From IMG/VR virus record IMGVR_UViG_3300036772_000557, positions 1 to 64,000 of that record: DNA of 64,000 nucleotides; one strand, 5' to 3'. The DNA comes from a virus. A program made the position numbers and the translations under genes. Positions 2,395-24,966 of this stretch are shown piece by piece (the stretch's first letter is position 1; each line of letters opens with the position of its first letter). The notes beneath the pieces were generated by a model that worked only from the letters and a program-made list of their open reading frames with translations, was not told where the DNA came from and made no database searches.

Positions 2395-2563
2395 CCGCTA
2401 ACCTGCATTCCAAAAGATCGTCAAGAGCCGCTTGCGTGGTTACGAGATCCGCGCCCCAGATGCTCGTAATCTCTGCGATGCAGCTACGAATAGCCGCTTG
2501 CCACACTTCCCGATCACGAGCGGACCAAGCGCGAGCGGCGCGGCATTGGGCGGGGGTGATCAT
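2372..2563 (-). CDS. hypothetical protein whose first 13 aa duplicate those of the downstream XRE protein
   Basis: MITPAQCRAARAW shared; ATGA overlap with upstream gene. Confidence 0.5.
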   Translation of the reverse strand: MITPAQCRAARAWSARDREVWQAAIRSCIAEITSIWGADLVTTQAALDDLLECRLADDNPSTV

Positions 2564-3012
2564 CGCGATTTCCCATCAACGAGACGAAGCGCTCGCTCTG
2601 CCATCTCAATTGTGTCACGCGATAGCAAATCCAGCGCTCGCCCCCGGCGACCGCCCTCCCCACATTCGATCAATAGCCGCCTAAGGGCGTGGTATAGAGC
2701 GGGGCCAGCCGACCGCTGAAGGCGCTCAGTCTCCTGCGGCGTAACTACGCGCGTTTGTGGGTTGCGCGCCTTTAACTCCGCGTAACTCATCAAGTCCCGA
2801 CCTTCCACGCGATCAGGCTGTGTCATCGCCGCCTTGGCGTCATCACAACATTCGATACAAATCCGAACATTACCAGGTCCAGCGACGGGGCGATGCTGAA
2901 GTTCCGCTTCAGATCGAGCACAAAACGAGCAATAGACAACAGGGGTGATCATCTCTGCAAGTTTCCATAGCTTGCCTGATCTGTCCATCTGATAACTCGC
3001 GATGCGTTTCAT
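2560..3012 (-). CDS. protein with ClpX-type C4 zinc-binding domain
   Basis: YCSFCARSEAELQHRPVAGPGNVRICIECC resembles the ClpX N-domain (CSFCGK...LIAGPGVYICDEC); alternative start MITP at 2952. Confidence 0.75.
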   Translation of the reverse strand: MKRIASYQMDRSGKLWKLAEMITPVVYCSFCARSEAELQHRPVAGPGNVRICIECCDDAKAAMTQPDRVEGRDLMSYAELKARNPQTRVVTPQETERLQRSAGPALYHALRRLLIECGEGGRRGRALDLLSRDTIEMAERALRLVDGKSR

Positions 3013-3421: not shown

Positions 3422-3450
3422 TTGACGACCTCACGAGGCCACCCTATATT
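3422..3450 (+). promoter_or_regulatory. sigma70-type promoter TTGACG-17-TATATT (rightward)
   Basis: TTGACG 3422-3427, TATATT 3445-3450, 17-bp spacer containing palindrome CCTCACGAGG. Confidence 0.8.
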
Positions 3451-3530
3451 CCAATCATCAGAAACGAACCAACGCCATTCCCGTGAAAAAGGCCGGGGTC
3501 GCTACCTCCTCTAAGCCGGAGACGCGGGGA

Positions 3531-3583
3531 TGGGTCGCGGTGATGAGACACCGCCTGATGAGAGCCAGCGAGGACGAAACCCA
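3531..3583 (+). ncRNA. type III hammerhead ribozyme
   Basis: TGGGTC|GCGGTG-atgaga-CACCGC-CTGATGA-G..C-GAAA-CCCA: complete catalytic core, GUC cleavage triplet, perfect 6-bp stem I, stem III TGGGT/ACCCA; stem II is weak. Confidence 0.75.
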
Positions 3584-3883
3584 ATGCGCAACACGAATTA
3601 CTTCGGCCGGAAGATTGGCGCCGTTGTTACCGAGAAGCGCCGCGGCACGGTCTCTAGCGTGGTGGTCGGCGATGTTCGCCGCTTCACCGCCAACGAGCAG
3701 GAAATGGGGTCTGGCATCCTCAAGTTCATTCCTAAGATCGAATTGTCGGGCCCGGCTGCGAAGCGCATCGCTATAGGCCTCAGCGCTCTCAAAGCCGCGC
3801 AATGGAAACATGGTTGTGCCACTTGGGACTGCCTCGGCGATTACGACACCATGCTGTACTCGTATCGTGAGCGGGCGGCTTAG
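3584..3883 (+). CDS. hypothetical protein (99 aa)
   Basis: ATG directly after the ribozyme; GAGGA RBS inside stem II; ends in AA. Confidence 0.7.
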   Translation: MRNTNYFGRKIGAVVTEKRRGTVSSVVVGDVRRFTANEQEMGSGILKFIPKIELSGPAAKRIAIGLSALKAAQWKHGCATWDCLGDYDTMLYSYRERAA

Positions 3884-3931
3884 GCCGCCTTCCGCTTTCC
3901 CCCTCAACCCGATGAGCAGGAGCGAAACCCA

Positions 3932-4468
3932 ATGAGCGAGACGGAGTTTCCCGCAGAGGTCGTCAAGGACGCCACCCTCCCTAACGCTTGGCGAGTCGAA
4001 AAGCTTGATAGCGATGGCGACGGTGGTGTCGATCTAGCGATCTTCGATGGCCCAAATGCAGAAGCGCGAGCGCGGGAATATGCAGCCTGGAAATATGGAT
4101 CAAACGGCAGCAAGATCATCGCCGGGCTGCAGGATGCGCTTGCGCATGTTCGCGGCGATGTGACGGCTGCGCGTGTGTCCACAGTCAGCGATCCAGAACG
4201 CGAGAAGATGACGAAGTCTCAAGTGTGCGCTGATCGACTCCTTGGTGCAGCCGGGTTTGGCCCAGACGTTTTCGATACCGAGGAAGGCCACTTTGCTGGC
4301 TATGATCCAATGCTCAGCGCTTTCCTGTATCGCAAGGGGAAGATGCACGTCGCTGTACGACCCGATGGTCGGTTTGAATGGCACACCGACAGCGGGCGGT
4401 TTGGCGGCGGCGGCAAAGCCACGCTTGACGACGAAAGCATCGAAAGTCTCGCCCGTGCTACAGAATAG
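3932..4468 (+). CDS. hypothetical, apparently chimeric phage protein
   Basis: AGGAG RBS; N-terminal WRVE..DGDGG..AIFDGPNAEARAREYA domain, central SKIIAGLQDALAHVRG segment. Confidence 0.65.
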   Translation: MSETEFPAEVVKDATLPNAWRVEKLDSDGDGGVDLAIFDGPNAEARAREYAAWKYGSNGSKIIAGLQDALAHVRGDVTAARVSTVSDPEREKMTKSQVCADRLLGAAGFGPDVFDTEEGHFAGYDPMLSAFLYRKGKMHVAVRPDGRFEWHTDSGRFGGGGKATLDDESIESLARATE

Positions 4469-4515
4469 GCAAGCCGCCCGAACACCGACGAAACTGAGGA
4501 TCAGGAGTGAAACCC

Positions 4516-4701
4516 ATGAATCTCACGGACAGGCTTTATCGCGCCCTCGCGGTCCTGGTAGCGCAACATGATCGGCCACACGGCTTTAGCGATGAGCATT
4601 GGTATCGCGAGGCGCTTGAAACGGCGCGCGCCGCTCTAGCAGACGCCTTCGTGGAAATGAACTCATCAGACAACGCCACAGACAGTGGATCGCCACAATA
4701 G
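4516..4701 (+). CDS. cassette gene, hypothetical
   Basis: CAGGAG RBS; stop TAG inside repeat; ends TDSGSPQ. Confidence 0.65.
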   Translation: MNLTDRLYRALAVLVAQHDRPHGFSDEHWYREALETARAALADAFVEMNSSDNATDSGSPQ

Positions 4702-5753: not shown

Positions 5754-5786
5754 AATAGGCGAGCAGCCCGAACACCGATGAAATTA

Positions 5787-5859
5787 CCCCGTGCGAGTCG
5801 CAGAGCCCGGCCGAAGAGGTCGGGCCGAACAACGGGTGCAAATCCCGTGACGGGGGCCA
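5787..5859 (+). ncRNA. tRNA-like structured RNA ending in CCA
   Basis: Acceptor-like CCCCGT/ACGGGG + G + CCA; T arm ACGGG-TGCAAAT-CCCGT; central hairpin GCCCGGCC-GAAGA-GGTCGGGC; no canonical D or anticodon loop. Confidence 0.55.
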
Positions 5860-5884
5860 ACCAGATGAGCAGGAGCGAAACCCT

Positions 5885-5965
5885 ATGATTATCGCGATGA
5901 TATGCCTTAGTGCCCTAATCACGGCATGGATGGCTACTACCGATACCCCGAGCGCCGCTGCATAA
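5885..5965 (+). CDS. 26-aa hydrophobic peptide
   Basis: MIIAMICLSALITAWMATTDTPSAAA*, preceded by AGGAG RBS in a hammerhead-like unit. Confidence 0.45.
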   Translation: MIIAMICLSALITAWMATTDTPSAAA

Positions 5966-6123
5966 CCTTATTCAAAGAGGAGTAACCGATCGAGGAACCG
6001 ATCACCCCTGCTGACGGGGCCGCCCCTGAATATCGAGGCAGGGGCGGTCGGCTAAAGCGCAGGCTCGGCCATCAAACTTCGAAACGCGCTCCCATACAGA
6101 TGAGCGGAACAAGTCTGGCGTGG

Positions 6124-7974
6124 TCATGCCAACCCATAAGCGATGACTCGGGCATCGTATGGCGTCAGATACAGGATGCCGTCTGCGACTACAGGACCGA
6201 GAAATTTATTGAAGTCGAACTCATGGTTCCATCGTTGGCTGTCCCAGATGAGCGGGATCACTGCCCCGTTCGGACCCTCCTTGAACTGCGTCAGGTCATA
6301 GCCGAGCAGCCGACCGCGCGTGACCTCGCGGTTGGCGTCGCCGTAAGGGATGGTGGCGAACAAGACTGGTGTCTCAGCGGGTCGCGCCTGATCGTAGCAC
6401 AGGGACATGAACCCGCCCGGCATCCCGCCGGGGGGGACCGCCGCCTCGGGGCTGGCGTATTCCTCGCCGGCCGCGAGATAGGTGATTTTCACGTGGGGGG
6501 AGAGGCCGTGGATCGGCTCGATGCTCCACATCCGCAGGGTACTGTTCTCGCCCCAGCAGAGAAGCCGCCACCCCTGCGGGCTTTTCCATACGATCGGTGA
6601 GCCGTGCTGATGGTGTGTCCGACTGTAAAAAAGCTTGTTGAGATCCCTGATGTCGCTGGGCATCGGGCTTGCATCGGACGTGTAAAAGGTGAACCATATC
6701 GGTAGGCACGCCAACGCCATGTAATTTTTTGCGATCCCCTGCGCGGTCGACAGCATTTCCGGCGTCGTGCCGCCCATCGCGTTCAGGCGGACCGCGTAGA
6801 GGATGCCGTCCTTCCCAGAGACGAGGCAGAGCTCGAGCTCCTCGATGACGACCGGACCGCCCGAACCGAGATCCATGTCGATCGCCTCGGCCGGATTAAG
6901 CGGGACGTTGCCCGTGGCGGCATCTATCCTCTCGGCCGGCACCATCGCATAGCGCCGTAGGTTAGTGGGCGGCCGTTCCCGACGCGTCTGCTGAGCGATC
7001 TGTGTTGCCGCGACAACCGTTTCCGGCACCGTAACGGAAACCGCTTTCGGGGCCGCTACGCGGGCGCTATCGAGGAAGGGGCTCCAATGGTCGACCACCT
7101 TCAGTTCGCCCATCAGGGCGGGCCCGGGCGGCGTGTAGCGCAGCTTGATGACGCACTCTCCCCACTCGGTCTTGCCATCGAAGGTGCCGTTGCCGGTTAC
7201 CAGGATGATGTCGCCCTTGCTGTCGGCCGCGAGCCCCGCACCGGCCTGCCAGATACCGCCTCCCGAACCGATGACCGCGGTGCACAATGTGGCGGTGACT
7301 CTCCACAGCCGGACGTCGACGGCGATCACCCAGCCGCGGTTCGATGCGTCAATCTCGTAGATCGAGCCGAACCCGATGAACACGGTTTGCCCGAGCATCA
7401 GCAACGATGCCCGTTGCTTGCGGGCCGCGCTCGCGAATTTCTGTGGCGGGATCCCGCCGGGATCGTAGACAGCGCCCTCGAGGTCGAGCGGCTGCTTCGC
7501 GCGCGCTCCCGAGACGAGCGAGACCGCCTCGAGGAAGTGCCGAGCTCGAGCCACCGACCCGTCAGGGCTCGCCCAGCTGCAGGCGTAGAGCGTCTGGGTC
7601 GCCGGGTCGATGACTGGGGTCGACAGAATTCCCCAGTGGTCGTTAACAGCCCATCCGTCTATCGATTTATTGCCGTCGATCGGCCGACCGAGTTCGCGCT
7701 TCCAAAGCTCCGCACCAGTCTTCGCATCCGCACAGACGATCTCGTTCGCCATGGTCGCTACGACGAGCAGGTCGTGCACCTGGCCGTTCGTGAGACGCAC
7801 GCCCGGCAGGGTCAGGGGCTGCGCCTCAGCGCCGCGCGCGTCTCCCGGGAGGGGAAGCTCGTAGAGTTTTTTGATCCCGCGCGTCGCGACCGCCTGGGCC
7901 GTCAGAACGGTTTCGTTGGGATTCACCCCGGCGTTATCGGTCGTGTAGGCGCGGCGCGTGACCGCGACTGCCAT
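6124..7974 (-). CDS. PQQ-repeat-like beta-propeller protein (~616 aa)
   Basis: NETVLT...AQPL...DAKTGAELWKR...GILSTPVIDP...GGGIWQAGAGLAAD...DLGSGGP pattern; start placed at TAATG overlap with GGAGAG RBS; no signal peptide. Confidence 0.75.
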   Translation of the reverse strand: MAVAVTRRAYTTDNAGVNPNETVLTAQAVATRGIKKLYELPLPGDARGAEAQPLTLPGVRLTNGQVHDLLVVATMANEIVCADAKTGAELWKRELGRPIDGNKSIDGWAVNDHWGILSTPVIDPATQTLYACSWASPDGSVARARHFLEAVSLVSGARAKQPLDLEGAVYDPGGIPPQKFASAARKQRASLLMLGQTVFIGFGSIYEIDASNRGWVIAVDVRLWRVTATLCTAVIGSGGGIWQAGAGLAADSKGDIILVTGNGTFDGKTEWGECVIKLRYTPPGPALMGELKVVDHWSPFLDSARVAAPKAVSVTVPETVVAATQIAQQTRRERPPTNLRRYAMVPAERIDAATGNVPLNPAEAIDMDLGSGGPVVIEELELCLVSGKDGILYAVRLNAMGGTTPEMLSTAQGIAKNYMALACLPIWFTFYTSDASPMPSDIRDLNKLFYSRTHHQHGSPIVWKSPQGWRLLCWGENSTLRMWSIEPIHGLSPHVKITYLAAGEEYASPEAAVPPGGMPGGFMSLCYDQARPAETPVLFATIPYGDANREVTRGRLLGYDLTQFKEGPNGAVIPLIWDSQRWNHEFDFNKFLGPVVADGILYLTPYDARVIAYGLA

Positions 7975-8132
7975 TACAGCACTCTCCACATCATCCACTG
8001 GAGGCGTGCCCATCGCCACTTCTCCCGCCATCGGAAATGGCTCGCGACCACCAATCCGAGAGCGGCGAACCCTGCGATGCCTCCAGCGAAGCCGAAGGCC
8101 GCGCCTATCGTCTGATACAGCTCCAGGGTCAT
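7974..8132 (-). CDS. 52-aa single-TM protein
   Basis: MTLELYQTIGAAFGFAGGIAGFAALGLVV...; translationally coupled on both sides. Confidence 0.55.
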   Translation of the reverse strand: MTLELYQTIGAAFGFAGGIAGFAALGLVVASHFRWREKWRWARLQWMMWRVL

Positions 8133-9943
8133 AAGGCGTACTCCTCTGTTCCGTGATATTCGGGCGTCAGCCATTCGCCGATCGGCCCGCCAAGACCAGC
8201 ACTCTCGGTCCCGAGGTTGACCCACCCGTCGCGCGGGACCTGCAGCAAGACCAGCGTGTTGGCGGCTGTCCCCGGCGCCATCTCCGCTGTAGCCACGACG
8301 CCGTCCGCGTCTGTAGACGCAAATAGCTGGACTGAGCTGCGGGGAGGAACTGGTTCCTTCAGCGCCAATTCGGCGGCGAGCCGCGTGCCCTTCTTCGCCC
8401 ACACCCGGGCCATGCGGATATTGCCGTTGTCGACCGGCGGTATATCGAGGCTGAGGTCGGCGGCACCCTCGAACACGTGCCTCGTCGAACGCGCCGGAGG
8501 CCTCGGCCCGTCTTCGACACCGGCCGGCCCGAGGCAGACATAAGAGTTGCCAGACCACCATCGATTATGCGGGATCGTGAACGTCACGACACCATTGCGA
8601 TCAGCCCAGACGTCGGGAATGTGCCCATTATAATCCTGAAGGTGGGCATAGGCGCCGAACGATGTTTGAACGCTGCGGGTCTGATCGTTCCACCCGTCCG
8701 TGCTGATCGCCGACAGGCAACCCGGTTTGTCCACCACGTGCCCCATCCGTTCTGTGATCAAGACGTTCTGATCAACCCACCGGTCAACCGCCGGACCCCC
8801 GACGAGGTTATTGTGGCACCAGATCATATTGTCGATTAGGGGGCCGAGTCCGTAGCACCCGGGATCACTCGAATAATCCTTATGATAAATCATCGGGTCG
8901 CCCAGCGAGTGCTGCAGAATGTACGCGTAGCCCAACAACTTGCTCGTCGCAATCTGCTGCCCCGGGCTAGCGTCGGTATCGGGCGTGTCGACAAACGGCA
9001 CCGACTGAAAGTTGTCCCACGCCGCCCAGGTTTGGTTTGTCCGCAACGCCCACATACCCTGCCCGTAATCGAGAACCGCCTTGAGCGCAAAATGGACGTT
9101 GAAGTCCAACAGGCTCATTCGGCCCCCCATCGCGGTCCAGGCGTACCAATGCAGCGTGTTAGGGTTGCCATCGAAATACTCTCCCACCGCACGCAGCGCG
9201 GCCATCTTGCCGCTGGCGAGGAGTTCTTTCACGAACGGAACCCATAGCCCCTTGCAATCGTCGATACGGACGCCGTCGAGATTGAGCCGCCCGATATACC
9301 AATCCGCCCATTCCAGCGCCCCGTCGATCATGTAGCGATACGGGTCGCTGTTCTGGTAGCAGCACTCGTCGCCAAACGGGAAATCGTTAAATCGGTCAGG
9401 CACGGCGTCTTCCTGCACGAAAGGCGGGATCGTCTTGCCGTCAACACCGCCGCGGAAGCACCCGGGTGTCTTCGGCCAACGGCCAGCGTTGGGCGCGCCA
9501 ACCGGATATTGCTTCGTCGCAGCGCCTTTGTAGCTGTAGAAGCCGGCGCGACCGCCGGCCATCTGGTGCAGCACCATATCCGCGTGGTTCCGCATCCCGT
9601 TCTGGCGAACGATCGCTATCGCGCGCTGCAGCTGCTCAGCCGTGCCGAACCGCGTCGGGATGGATCCCTGCTGCAGCTTGCTGCCGAGGTCGTAGTGATC
9701 GAATACGCCATAACCTGTGCCCGTCGGCAGGTCGCCTGATTGCGTCTTGCACAGCGGAGGCCACATGATGTCGGTAAACCCCACGCGTGCCAGATGTGAA
9801 GCCCGCGAGGCAATGCGATCCGCCCACCACGGCTCGTTGGGCGTAGCGGCATCCACCGGCGCGGGCACCGATATCCGGTGCCCCCGCGGATCATTGGGAA
9901 ACGCAGGATCCGGGAAAAACGCGTTCGCCAGATACCAGACCAT
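8129..9943 (-). CDS. GH13 alpha-amylase family protein
   Basis: GYGVFDHYDLG..TRFGT, ADMVLHQ (region I), GVRIDDCKG (nucleophile), VGEYFD (acid/base), FVDTPDTD (region IV, His replaced by Pro). Confidence 0.9.
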   Translation of the reverse strand: MVWYLANAFFPDPAFPNDPRGHRISVPAPVDAATPNEPWWADRIASRASHLARVGFTDIMWPPLCKTQSGDLPTGTGYGVFDHYDLGSKLQQGSIPTRFGTAEQLQRAIAIVRQNGMRNHADMVLHQMAGGRAGFYSYKGAATKQYPVGAPNAGRWPKTPGCFRGGVDGKTIPPFVQEDAVPDRFNDFPFGDECCYQNSDPYRYMIDGALEWADWYIGRLNLDGVRIDDCKGLWVPFVKELLASGKMAALRAVGEYFDGNPNTLHWYAWTAMGGRMSLLDFNVHFALKAVLDYGQGMWALRTNQTWAAWDNFQSVPFVDTPDTDASPGQQIATSKLLGYAYILQHSLGDPMIYHKDYSSDPGCYGLGPLIDNMIWCHNNLVGGPAVDRWVDQNVLITERMGHVVDKPGCLSAISTDGWNDQTRSVQTSFGAYAHLQDYNGHIPDVWADRNGVVTFTIPHNRWWSGNSYVCLGPAGVEDGPRPPARSTRHVFEGAADLSLDIPPVDNGNIRMARVWAKKGTRLAAELALKEPVPPRSSVQLFASTDADGVVATAEMAPGTAANTLVLLQVPRDGWVNLGTESAGLGGPIGEWLTPEYHGTEEYAL

Positions 9944-10278
9944 TAGCCGGCCATGCACAGATCGAGCGCCCGCGCCTTTGCCAGCGCGAAGCCGTCGAGA
10001 ACGTCAGCCGGCATGCGTTCAGGGCGGTCATTCCAGACTTCCACCTGGCTCACACCAATCGCCTCGCCATAACATTTGCAGGCGTCCCATCGCAGCCGAA
10101 AGCATTGCTCGAAGTTGAGCCCCATGTCGGCAACAGCCTGCTGGATCGCGCCAATGACGCAGCTTGGCCTGCCCCTTTCTCCGTACATGCTTTTGCGCCA
10201 GCCGTACCGCCGGATGTTTGCTTCCGCGCGGTTGAGCGCTTCGTAGACCGGGTCGAAGCCGGTTCCGTCTAGTGGCAT
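9943..10278 (-). CDS. conserved phage hypothetical (DUF6197-like)
   Basis: IRRYGW...CVIGAI...WNDRPER..ADVL pattern. Confidence 0.6.
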   Translation of the reverse strand: MPLDGTGFDPVYEALNRAEANIRRYGWRKSMYGERGRPSCVIGAIQQAVADMGLNFEQCFRLRWDACKCYGEAIGVSQVEVWNDRPERMPADVLDGFALAKARALDLCMAG

Positions 10279-10291
10279 GGTGTTCTCCTGG

Positions 10292-10627
10292 TTACGCCCG
10301 CTTGCGCTCGGCCGCCGGCGAATTGCGCTCTCCGCCGACCTTGCGCTTCGGGTTGAGCAGGTCGCGCAGCGCCGGCGCCACCCTCAGCGTCACGGTGCGG
10401 CCGGCGGGGATCTGCATCGCCTCGCCGGTGAACGGGTTGCGTCCGCTCTTTGGCGCGGTATTGCGCACGCGGAAGCTGCCGAAGCCCTGGATGGTGACGT
10501 TCTCGCCGCGGGTAGCGTGATTCGCCAGGGCGGCGAATACCGCGTTGACGACTACCCTCGCCACGGCTTGCGACAAGAGCTGAGTCTCCTCGGAGACTTG
10601 TTTGGCGATCGAAGTCTTTGTGATCAT
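10292..10627 (-). CDS. HU/IHF family DNA-binding protein
   Basis: GENVTIQGFGSFRVR...GRNPFTGEAMQIPA signature. Confidence 0.92.
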   Translation of the reverse strand: MITKTSIAKQVSEETQLLSQAVARVVVNAVFAALANHATRGENVTIQGFGSFRVRNTAPKSGRNPFTGEAMQIPAGRTVTLRVAPALRDLLNPKRKVGGERNSPAAERKRA

Positions 10628-10672
10628 GTGGTTTTCTCCTTCTCAATCAGCCGCGATCGCCTGGGGACACCG

Positions 10673-11299
10673 TCATTCGACAGTTGCCTCGCGCAGCTTT
10701 CGCTCGCGATCAAGCGCCGACACGGCAAATACCGCGTCTTCCTCGCCTACCTGCCACGCCGCGACCAGCGCCGTCGCTCTATGGTCCGGCAACCTCTGCC
10801 GAATGTACGGGACCATGGTCTGCCAAAACCAAATGCTCGGATCGGCATCTTCGACATCAGTTCCCTTGCACGGCTCATCTGACCACGCCCGCCGCGGGGC
10901 GTGGCGAAGAGCGTCCGCCAGTGCAAAACGCCGCTCGCACCGATCATCAAGCAGCGATTTCAATTCAGCCCACGCGGGCCACCATTTCTCCCGCGAGCCC
11001 CAATAGCGTAACGCATCGACGACAACATCTTCCGGATACCGAGCCAGCTCGTCGGCATAGACGGCGACCTGAAACACCAACTCGTCCTCACTCTGCGTTC
11101 TCGACTTCGTGGTCAATTTCAGCCGCAATAATTCCTTTTTCACTACTGCGTCGGGGCAAGGGCGCAGCGTCGCCTCGACGATGGCAATCGCCGTTGCGAG
11201 CTCGGTCGGATCGGCGCCTGAGCGTAGGCTATAGCCCACGAATTTGGTCTCGTAACCGTATTCCATGGTCGAGCAGTCAGTTCGCCTCTCGGAAATCAT
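10673..11299 (-). CDS. putative replication accessory / helicase-loader-like protein
   Basis: VYADELARYPEDVV...KWWPAWAEL motif, directly downstream of initiator; start uncertain. Confidence 0.5.
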   Translation of the reverse strand: MISERRTDCSTMEYGYETKFVGYSLRSGADPTELATAIAIVEATLRPCPDAVVKKELLRLKLTTKSRTQSEDELVFQVAVYADELARYPEDVVVDALRYWGSREKWWPAWAELKSLLDDRCERRFALADALRHAPRRAWSDEPCKGTDVEDADPSIWFWQTMVPYIRQRLPDHRATALVAAWQVGEEDAVFAVSALDRERKLREATVE

Positions 11300-12167
11300 C
11301 GATGCGACTGAAGGCGGCAAGGATGCTACTAGATTGCGTTCCACCAGCTGCGGGTCGTGAGCGGATATCGCGGCTGAAATCCGCGGCCCGCTGAACCCAG
11401 GTCCTCCAAGCCGCATTCCAGTCGGCGAAACGGGAGCCGTTTTTGAGATGATGGTCTCGGAACCGTTCGGCTTCCCAGGCGACCCAGCCGAGGTCATAAC
11501 CTTTGCCGATGGCATAGGCGTAATCCTGTTCATCAGGCTGCCAATCGGGCGAAATCCTGGACTTCCGTTCTCCGCTTCCACTTGCCCTTACCTTTCGATG
11601 ATCATCGATTTGAACAACCTCGGCCTTCGGCGGCTCTCTCTCAGAAGCGATAGCTTCTGAGATAACTGAATCTGTATCTGCGGCCGATGTAACGGTCGGA
11701 TGTAACGCTTCGAGCGGCGCCGTAACGGCGGGCTCGGCTGGTTTGATGGGCGTAGCTCGCGGTTCAAGTTTAAGTTCCTCCTGCGCCGCTCGCGCCGCCG
11801 CTGCAGCTCGACTCCGAGCCGTTCTTTCAGCTCCCGGTGATCTAGGCTTCGGCAGCTTCTCGTCCTGGCGCTTCTTCCAGGATGCGATCTGATCACCGAT
11901 CAGTATCCGCATGTCCCGGAAGGCCTGAATGACGCGTTGGATCTCGTCGACCGTCACTCGGCAAAACGCAGCGACTACTTGGAGATTGAACCCGGTAATT
12001 GAACCGCGCTGCTTCCCCCGAGACAGCTGCTCGTTTGAGAACGTCATGGCGCAGGAAAACGTGTGCCACGCGACAGAGGGCGAGGTTCCCGCCACCTCGG
12101 CGACCGCCAGCCATTTAGGGTCGGTCGGCGCCTCGTTCCAAAGCTTGAGCCAAGGGAATCCGCTCAT
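11277..12167 (-). CDS. phage replication initiator protein
   Basis: N-terminal PWLKLWNEAPTDPKW winged-helix-like part; C-terminal DnaT-like PDWQP...ERFRDHH...DWNAAWRTW. Confidence 0.75.
   Translation of the reverse strand: MSGFPWLKLWNEAPTDPKWLAVAEVAGTSPSVAWHTFSCAMTFSNEQLSRGKQRGSITGFNLQVVAAFCRVTVDEIQRVIQAFRDMRILIGDQIASWKKRQDEKLPKPRSPGAERTARSRAAAAARAAQEELKLEPRATPIKPAEPAVTAPLEALHPTVTSAADTDSVISEAIASEREPPKAEVVQIDDHRKVRASGSGERKSRISPDWQPDEQDYAYAIGKGYDLGWVAWEAERFRDHHLKNGSRFADWNAAWRTWVQRAADFSRDIRSRPAAGGTQSSSILAAFSRIDDFREAN
11639..11727. other. candidate replication origin inside the initiator gene
   Basis: GTAACG repeats (GATGTAACG at 11686 and 11699, CGTAACG at 11721) next to perfect inverted repeat TCTCAGAAGC-gata-GCTTCTGAGA. 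Confidence 0.45.
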
Positions 12168-23826: not shown

Positions 23827-24172
23827 ACCGATTCTCACGCTTGCAGACATAGCAAAACGCATGCGCGTGTCGGTTCGGACCGTGCAGCGGCGCATCACAG
23901 AGTCGGGCCTTGAGTTCGCTCGGCCCGGGCGGTCCTATGTTTTCACCGAAGCAGACTACGCGCTGCTTTTTGAGGCTACCCGATGCCGTTCAAACTCATC
24001 CCGCCAGGGACCAGAAAAAACAACCCCTTCTACCTCGTCCGCGGCACGGTCGACGGGCGAGACATTGAGGTCTCTGCGAAAACGAGAGACAAAGCGGCTG
24101 CTAAAAGGTTTGCGGCAGAACTCGAGCGGGAGCTCCTCGCGCGTCGTATCCCTCGACCTGGAGAAGCGATAA
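23819..24172 (+). CDS. excisionase-like HTH protein
   Basis: ILTLADIAKRMRVSVRTVQRRI...GRSYVFTEAD; overlaps integrase 5' end. Confidence 0.75.
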   Translation: MPEPILTLADIAKRMRVSVRTVQRRITESGLEFARPGRSYVFTEADYALLFEATRCRSNSSRQGPEKTTPSTSSAARSTGETLRSLRKRETKRLLKGLRQNSSGSSSRVVSLDLEKR

Positions 24173-24966
24173 CATTCGCCGCGGCAGCTGATCTGTATAT
24201 CTCCTACCGGGATCCCATTAAGGCCGATGTCGGCCGCATCGATCGGCTCAAACGCGTGATCGGCAAAAAGGTAGTCGCCGACATCCGCCAAGCCGACCTT
24301 GTCGCCGCCGCCGATCTCCTGCAGCCCAACAAGGCGCCGGCGACGCGCAACCGCGAGGTCATTCGAATGGCCGCATCGATCCTGCACTACGCCCACGAAA
24401 ACGGCTATTGCGATTGGCTTCGGGTGAAGCTGTTCAAAGAACCGGCGCCGCGGACGCGCGCCGTCACGATGGATGTGGCCGCGGAGCTAATCGAGGCCGC
24501 TCCCGCCGGGCCGCACCAGCTGTTGCTGTTGTGGCTGTTCCGGCACGGCACGCGGATTAGCCAGACGCTCAGTGTGACGTGGGACGATATCGACCTGCCG
24601 CAGCAGTCGTTCCGGCTGTACGACAAGAAGGGAGGATGCTGGCGGGTCTTCCCGTTGCATCCGGAAGTGTTCGAGCAGCTCGCCGCGATGCCGGCGCGCA
24701 GCGGCCGGCTGTGGCCATGGGAGACGAAATCAGGCGTCTACAAGTGGCTTCGCCCGTTGACGCGGAAGCTGGGGATCGCGTTCACCCCCCATGTCGGAAG
24801 GCATTCACTCGGGACGTGGCTGAATGAGAGCGGCGCCGGGCTGCGGACGATCATGGCTACACTTGGCCACCAGGACGCCAAGAGCTCGATCCGGTATCAG
24901 GCCGCCGACATTGAAATCGTGCGAGCAGCAGCGGTGAAAATTGGCCCGATTGGGAGAAAAATATGA
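23983..24966 (+). CDS. int: tyrosine integrase
   Basis: HGTRISQ (R), DKKG (K), HVGRHS (HxxR), LGH, terminal RY. Confidence 0.93.
   Translation: MPFKLIPPGTRKNNPFYLVRGTVDGRDIEVSAKTRDKAAAKRFAAELERELLARRIPRPGEAITFAAAADLYISYRDPIKADVGRIDRLKRVIGKKVVADIRQADLVAAADLLQPNKAPATRNREVIRMAASILHYAHENGYCDWLRVKLFKEPAPRTRAVTMDVAAELIEAAPAGPHQLLLLWLFRHGTRISQTLSVTWDDIDLPQQSFRLYDKKGGCWRVFPLHPEVFEQLAAMPARSGRLWPWETKSGVYKWLRPLTRKLGIAFTPHVGRHSLGTWLNESGAGLRTIMATLGHQDAKSSIRYQAADIEIVRAAAVKIGPIGRKI

Follow-up and report, generated by a model that had tools for sequence, protein, structure and literature searches.

A 73-nt RNA element with a tRNA-like top half, an encoded CCA end and no anticodon, conserved across unrelated phage contexts

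What is a 73-nt sequence that resembles one half of a tRNA doing among the small genes of a prophage? We analysed the first 64 kb (64,000 nt, here called the window) of a 90-kb IMG/VR provirus record from a soil prophage, in which an element at 5787-5859 on the + strand has a fold like the top half of a tRNA and an encoded CCA, without an anticodon. A preliminary description of this DNA had taken it for a tRNA mimic and proposed an RNase P-released regulatory RNA, or a decoy for tRNA-targeting defence toxins, carried as an RNA cassette. The element opens with the 5' strand of a 6-bp acceptor stem (CCCCGU, 5787-5792) and continues with a 12-nt connector in the place of the D arm (5793-5804; positions 9, 12 and 13 variable), an 8-bp central hairpin with the 5-nt loop GAAGA in the place of the anticodon arm (5805-5825), the connector CGAACA (5826-5831), a T arm with a 5-bp stem and the 7-nt loop UGCAAAU (5832-5848), and an unpaired G, the acceptor 3' strand ACGGGG, a discriminator G and CCA (5849-5859), this last part being assigned from the sequence, the MFE fold and the comparison with a homolog, L116. 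The pairings first described, namely CCCCGU/ACGGGG followed by G and CCA, ACGGG-UGCAAAU-CCCGU, and the 8-bp hairpin with GAAGA, are therefore present, and the core is indeed non-canonical, having neither a D loop nor a 7-nt anticodon loop.

Six acceptor pairs, a juxtaposed G and G at the 7-66 position and five T-arm pairs are stacked in this order, and the tail is RCCA. The T-loop equivalents of G53-C61, U54, C56 and A58 are present, and position 55 is G. The predicted prerequisites of an RNase P substrate (12 stacked layers, a T-loop and RCCA) are thus found in the element. The MFE fold from RNAfold was the cloverleaf-like shape (-37.4 kcal/mol, z = -2.9, with 1 of 200 shuffles equally good), and the fold was also kept when the element was folded in its 146-nt context. 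A 3-bp 'D' mini-hairpin finds no support, because positions 9, 12 and 13 change without compensation and G9A in L116 breaks it. That the fold goes beyond chance follows mainly from covariation in homologs, not from the z-score.

The comparison with known RNA classes returned no family. No match to the tRNA family RF00005 (cut-off 29 bits) was found at E <= 10 in the whole 90-kb record, and ARAGORN in its default, relaxed, mitochondrial and tmRNA modes called no tRNA or tmRNA in the window. No Rfam family was matched in the whole window at gathering thresholds; around the element, Rfam at E <= 10 gave weak, chance-level matches only, and the tmRNA families did not match the element at this limit. 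The ARAGORN and Rfam checks that the preliminary description had suggested thus place the element in no known RNA class. The Tymovirus-type tRNA-like 3' element (RF00233) reached 16 bits (E = 0.67) on the T arm alone, below its threshold of 40 bits. Judged as a tRNA, the element has the acceptor and T arm (5 bp, 7-nt T-loop) and the discriminator-CCA, with a 6-bp acceptor; it has neither a 7-nt anticodon loop with U33 on a 5-bp stem nor a D arm with a G18/G19-type loop. A hammerhead with the element as stem I was also rejected: no GUH site with a stem I could be drawn, and only the 3' half of a hammerhead core follows the element (5860-5884). An exact match to the T-arm 17-mer of the element was found in 24 IMG/VR contigs, where it forms part of predicted phage tRNAs and permuted tmRNAs, which indicates that the unusual UGC T-loop is a natural variant. 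Permuted tmRNAs of the two-piece type with a T arm identical to that of the element were seen in the IMG/VR phages L003, L006, L008, L009, L013 and L022.

We searched IMG/VR with a pattern in which the loops and connectors were fixed and all stems, including the 5' acceptor strand, were left free. The search returned one match, L116, whose copy reached 84 bits with a model made from only the window copy. The two copies differed at 13 of 73 positions, and 12 of the 13 lay in the central and T stems, all of them keeping the pairing: five pairs were changed on both sides (two in the central hairpin, three in the T arm) and two further pairs of the central hairpin on a single side, which turned them into G-U or G-C. 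When the register was slid by 1-3 columns, there were 0-1 compensatory pairs and 32-55% paired cells, compared with 97.7% in the true register. The MFE folds of the window and L116 copies were the same, and RNAalifold gave the same structure. Three G-U pairs, together with the loss of the fold on the L116 antisense strand (z = +0.37), point to the sense strand as the folding strand. The 5' acceptor strand, left free in the search, is invariant between the window and L116; the CGAACA connector is also the same in L116, but the search pattern demanded it, and loop identity in L116 is not independent evidence for the same reason. These results show that selection acts on a sense-strand RNA structure which copies the enzyme-facing half of a tRNA and is unable to decode. 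Structural conservation in relatives, whose absence the preliminary description had named as a ground for refutation, was confirmed, since compensatory changes hold the fold in L116.

The L116 record (31.7 kb) is a phage with terminase, portal and integrase, and its ORFs showed no protein similarity to the 90-kb record at E <= 1e-4. DNA homology between the window and L116 extended from 1 base before the acceptor stem to GCCAACC and was lost on both sides. Elsewhere in L116, at about 10770-10820, lies the 3' part of a tRNA-Val(CAC) gene, adjoining a tyrosine integrase (9359-10735) and about 650 nt from the element copy; this fragment is probably the attP of the L116 phage.

Two copies, those of the window and L116, were available as DNA; the others were deduced from protein sequences or summary tables. 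When Logan contigs from soil metagenomes were aligned to the window, contigs from three further samples had near-identical copies of the element between flanks that differ from those of the window, with the unit beginning exactly at 5787 and stopping at 5860-5863. In the first sample the element spanned exactly 5787 to 5860 between unlike flanks; in the second, the array repeat and the element were followed by the ribosome-binding module and then a different ORF; in the third, the repeat and the element were followed by yet another ORF. The soil copies varied at positions 12 and 13, both in the connector. Across the soil runs the element stood at single-contig depth and the array repeat, the module and the terminal hairpin at 10-15 times higher depth, so the element is not a high-copy repeat. 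There was one copy per phage record, and all copies were in sense orientation.

Translation of the window in the frame open in L116, followed by searches of protein collections, revealed eight singleton ORFs from other metagenomes that carry the element-encoded peptide within mutually unrelated flanks. The shared peptide, T of TPC through Q of GGQ, is encoded by bases -1 to +74. Among the protein-derived copies, the variable residues fell at stem positions. In P0179, C to R (U6->C) and D to G (A64->G) together amount to a compensatory change in the acceptor stem, from U6-A64 to C6-G64, for which the peptide offers no rationale. Back-translation allowed all 19 of 19 pairs in 8 of the 10 translated copies and forced one mismatch in the other two; slid registers forced 0-7 mismatches, with zero reached by one copy in one register. 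The second base of the central hairpin loop differs in P0171 and P0176, and P0178 has an apparent C at position 54. Overall, the fold has been kept by compensating mutations in at least a dozen unrelated phage contexts. The term 'RNA cassette' has proved apt for this tRNA-shaped module, which is discrete, conserved in structure and passed from one context to another. The conserved unit reaches from one base 5' of the acceptor stem to one base 3' of the CCA, and its boundaries coincide with the predicted mature ends of the tRNA-like structure, as expected if tRNA-processing enzymes release the element.

Other searches for the element returned nothing further. No copy was found by blastn or tblastn in INPHARED phages and PLSDB plasmids, the sole tblastn match, in Burkholderia phage FLC9, covering only the C-terminal domain of the host protein. 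A 20-mer of the element had no match in genome contigs, and no relatives of the genes neighbouring the element were found in IMG/VR. The ribosome-binding module had five matches in genome contigs, none with the element, and the match in L115 was in coding sequence. The covariance models R1 and R2 gave nothing convincing in about 1.3 Mb of loci, four module-sharing phage records and 151 alphaproteobacterial genomes; a 26.7-bit match in a MAG was rejected as a GC-rich hairpin. Additional pattern scans of IMG/VR returned L116 or unrelated matches only. A literature search found no account of the element, which is real and, it appears, undescribed.

The element lies in a + strand accessory operon whose seven small ORFs belong to no known family and alternate with a 24-nt repeat. 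A sigma-70-like promoter at 3422-3450 (+; TTGACG-17-TATATT, 10/12 matches) heads this operon, and no promoter-like site was found closer to the element. Copy 6 of the array repeat with its spacer (5754-5786, +), which holds an ATG at 5778, directly precedes the element, in agreement with the first account. The element does not occupy the last slot of the array, as had been proposed: a translation-initiation module with AGGAG (5860-5884, +), which contains the 3' half of a hammerhead-like core and serves the next ORF, and a 26-codon hydrophobic ORF (5885-5965, +) precede the terminal hairpin. This ORF, whose product ends in three alanines (AAA) and which has a strong ribosome-binding module, is the true last gene of the operon. 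A GC-rich hairpin between convergent genes closes the operon at 6004-6047, on neither strand in particular. It is 95% identical to L028 7595-7638, where the operon has different gene content, reached high summed contig depth in the soil runs and had a weak Rfam match to DUF2693-FD (17 bits, E = 0.64).

At the other end of the operon, a candidate hammerhead of type III lies in the leader at 3529-3585 (27.9 bits, E = 8.6e-4 with Rfam Hammerhead_3, whose cut-off is 48.5 bits). The leaders of L026 and L027 consist of GGGUC, a 6-bp hairpin, CUGAUGAG, CAGGAG and CGAAACCC, followed by ATG, and the L028 leader has the same layout but with CCGAUGAG; in such a layout the Shine-Dalgarno sequence would sit in the 2-bp stem II. 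Rfam at E <= 1 did not flag the L026 and L027 leaders. The hammerhead-like 3' half, GAUGAGCAGGAGCGAAACCC, is reused in the window as a ribosome-binding module before three ORFs (3905-3935, 4490-4520 and 5858-5888), and an exact 20-mer of the module occurs in four other IMG/VR phage contigs. In L028, two non-coding stretches (5895-6105 and 6290-6388) share a motif of about 60 nt, CATCGGTGTTCG...CGCCGCAGCTGTGGAGAT, directly upstream of ORF starts, and the first of them begins with CTGATGAGCAGGAGCGAAA; these stretches may be other RNA elements in cassette slots.

Two neighbouring genes were recorded as well. The divergent accessory operon encodes at 2560-3012 (minus strand) a 150-aa protein whose sole domain is a ClpX C4 zinc finger (PF06689, E = 3.9e-7), with no AAA+ domain. 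Downstream of the element, a PQQ-like beta-propeller protein is encoded at 6124-9958 (minus strand), with a neighbouring gene of 609 aa. Among the matches listed for the PQQ-like protein in soil metagenomes, hundreds were cellular at 45-55% identity and a few stood at 69-87%, which suggests that this gene is host-derived and phage-carried. Among the matches listed for an alignment of PQQ proteins, all were cellular homologs at 38-54% identity. No close homolog of this protein was found in 401 alphaproteobacterial genomes.

All copies of the element lie within or overlap a translated frame, either just past a start codon or inside a short leader ORF. For L116 and the eight copies recovered from proteins, the start of the called ORF is 4-10 codons before the element (36 in one case), and the frame is continuous through the element into a small protein. 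In the window, a 36-codon frame from the ATG at 5778, within the array repeat, crosses the element, and its TGA overlaps the ATG of the next ORF; in two soil variants, 1-nt insertions shift this ATG into the L116 frame and the ATGA overlap is kept. The L116 copy is bracketed on the minus strand by a 15-nt direct repeat, AAACCT(A/G)AAACGACC, at 11420-11434 and 11519-11533. The two repeat copies are 99 nt apart and in frame, enclose the element plus 13 nt, duplicate the first codons of the host gene and occur nowhere else in the 31.7-kb record. Relatives of this host gene have M plus 5-12 residues and then a conserved ETDG core; given their short N-terminus, the L116 gene reads as MSKPKTT, a 33-codon insert and the normal protein. 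In P0176, QTTD flanks the element on both sides. The repeats in L116 and P0176 look like the trace of an insertion with target duplication. An X6 contig joining 5790 to 5864 was considered as an empty allele and not counted, its shorter side having 20 letters and being perhaps another repeat-module junction.

We regard the element, at about an even chance, as a gene without a promoter of its own that moves horizontally and encodes a non-decoding tRNA mimic, which is released by host tRNA-maturation enzymes and acts through a host protein. The analysis shows the conserved fold, its strand specificity, the boundaries of the unit, its spread over contexts and its failure as a tRNA; how the RNA is processed, that it acts in trans and what kind of target it has are inferred. 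The element would be transcribed with whatever accessory gene or operon holds it, here from the promoter at 3422; RNase P would cut at its first base, and the 3' end would be trimmed back to CCA. Once free, the RNA would act by way of a host protein that binds tRNAs at their acceptor/T-arm end, candidate targets being a defence enzyme that modifies or cleaves acceptor ends or another tRNA-end binder such as SmpB. Spread would be horizontal, between unrelated soil phages, as a unit of about 75 nt. Any protein partner must be host-encoded, because the window and L116 phages have none in common; domains of CCA-adding enzyme, RtcB or AbiEii were found in neither phage record. AbiE/MenT toxins modify the 3'-CCA ends of tRNAs, and phage tRNAs have been proposed as decoys (PMC7725324); tRNA-targeting defences are evaded through phage tRNAs (PMC10264068, PMC11555353). 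By analogy with these systems, a role as a defence decoy is plausible.

Several observations count against this mobile, host-processed mimic. The position of the copies, in open frames after a start codon or in a leader ORF with the ATGA overlap, fits a cis role or a tolerated insertion equally well, and RNase P cleavage would separate the start codon from its gene. Bacterial RNase P prefers neither C1-G72 as the first pair nor A as base -1, and the element has both. The G at position 55 and the apparent C54 of P0178 also count against it. An antisense regulatory role of the P1 C4 / P4 CI type fared less well: the single-stranded parts of the element gave only chance 8-10-mers as antisense targets in the 90-kb record, with none beyond chance, and such a role is thereby weakened. 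The fullest version of the preferred reading has the mimic inserting with target duplication into first codons, borrowing transcription, being excised by RNase P and acting as a decoy for a tRNA acceptor/T-arm binder such as an AbiE/MenT-type nucleotidyltransferase, an acceptor-stem nuclease or the SmpB of trans-translation. We hold this version to be quite unlikely. Its SmpB option deserves mention since the same accessory region encodes the free ClpX-type zinc-finger domain.

A cis-acting signal for processing, stability or translation control of the next gene, with a released RNA that has no function of its own, is a doubtful but serious candidate. The element always lies directly upstream of, or within the first codons of, a small co-oriented ORF, and the leader ORF of the window lineage meets the next gene in the ATGA overlap; this end is preserved in the X6 contig, where indels of 1 nt total three bases. 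The candidate type III hammerhead in the leader of the same operon, and the homology of its 3' half to the module after the element, mean that two kinds of RNA-cutting signals may feed one ribosome-binding module. Cis-acting tRNA-like signals are documented in plant mitochondria, where t-elements mark the ends of mRNAs by way of RNase P and RNase Z (PMC1920247). Against a cis role, each phage has one element although the array offers seven similar junctions, and the acceptor, connectors and loops are conserved over unrelated downstream genes, which exceeds the needs of a generic RNase P signal. The frame pattern itself has little statistical weight, because base composition leaves two of the three sense frames across the element open and protein-derived copies are detectable only when they are in frame. 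We consider it unlikely that the element is a selfish miniature mobile element of the Rickettsia palindromic kind, or a retroposed tRNA-derived sequence, whose structure serves mobility with no gain to the phage. The 15-nt repeat around the L116 element, the host gene with its apparent 33-codon insert after MSKPKTT and the QTTD on both sides in P0176 are what such an element would leave. The dozen host genes that have no relation to one another, the sharply bounded unit and its conserved inverted ends, formed by the acceptor strands, also fit it. Yet there is one copy per phage record, at single-contig depth in soil where the array repeats reach 10-15 times more, and mobility alone leaves the sense bias, the T-loop and the CCA unexplained. 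An unsystematic look linked no transposase or reverse transcriptase to the element, and in the window and soil contig X3 the flanking repeats are ordinary array repeats, clean duplications being present in L116 and P0176 only.

The remaining alternatives are far less probable. Ten ORFs carry the motif TPCKSQS...CKSGDGGQ 4-36 residues from their called starts, and it could be read as a conserved N-terminal peptide module, for example a targeting tag, with an incidental RNA fold. This is very improbable, since 11 of the 12 stem changes between the window and L116 alter the amino acid in the L116 frame and one is synonymous, which indicates that the RNA fold is conserved and not the peptide. The amino acid substitutions are radical (C to R, D to G, and one site with P, L, G or R) and go together as RNA pairs, not as peptide neighbours; the window frame from the ATG at 5778 yields a different peptide; the JGI call of the L116 gene (P0123) has a GTG start 3' of the element; and the ends of the motif coincide with complementary stem strands. 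Least probable of all, and disfavoured, is the view that the element is a degenerating tRNA gene, the tRNA part of an attachment site or a set of chance hairpins. Real phage tRNAs have the identical T arm, phages often hold 3' parts of tRNA genes at attP, and L116 has such a 3' fragment about 650 nt away. The compensatory substitutions nevertheless keep a non-tRNA architecture in unrelated phages, RF00005 gave no match at E <= 10, and the relaxed and mitochondrial modes of ARAGORN were negative. In addition, the only tyrosine recombinase seen in the window (Pfam Phage_integrase, 23983-24966) is 18 kb from the element, and the 5' acceptor strand, which an att fragment would not have, is present.

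Confirmation of the element as a mobile, non-decoding tRNA mimic would add to bacterial viruses a case of a mobile RNA gene derived from a tRNA, and a natural counterpart to the tRNA-based processing cassettes of synthetic biology. By keeping just the half of a tRNA that faces enzymes, such RNAs would offer phages a less costly form of tRNA-based counter-defence, one that does not decode. The location of the element within reading frames and its apparent movement with target duplication are unusual. At 73 nt, it is a small and well-defined RNA whose variable and invariant positions are known.

The element can be set beside five known systems. Like canonical and phage tRNAs, it has an acceptor stacked on a 5-bp T arm, a 7-nt T-loop, a discriminator-CCA and a length of 73 nt; unlike them, it has no D arm, an 8-bp central stem, a 5-nt loop and G at position 55. 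With the tRNA-like domain of tmRNA it shares an acceptor and T arm without an anticodon, a short substitute for the D-loop and a helix exiting the junction, and by eye the connectors are loosely alike (GAGUCG vs GAUUCG, GAACA vs GGAC-A). It differs from tmRNA in having C3-G70 instead of G3-U70, a G73 discriminator, no tag reading frame with a resume codon, no pseudoknots and a length of 73 nt only. A minimised tmRNA tRNA-like domain is therefore a lead only, based on the T arm, the connectors and the nearby free ClpX zinc-finger protein. Plant mitochondrial t-elements are tRNA-like processing signals in mRNAs (PMC1920247). They too have a tRNA-like fold in a protein-coding transcript, and in both cases the ends could be set by RNase P and 3' processing; t-elements are cis signals with little sequence conservation, whereas the present element has an encoded CCA and keeps its loops and acceptor across unrelated genes. 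The P1 C4 and P4 CI RNAs are small phage RNAs freed from a longer transcript, with RNase P involved, and are antisense to nearby targets; they are not cloverleaf-shaped with a T-loop and CCA, as the element is. Finally, Rickettsia palindromic elements are short structured units found in frame within many unrelated genes, with signs of insertion. Where they have many copies per genome and form a single long palindrome, the element has one copy per genome, is tRNA-shaped and is sense-oriented in every instance.
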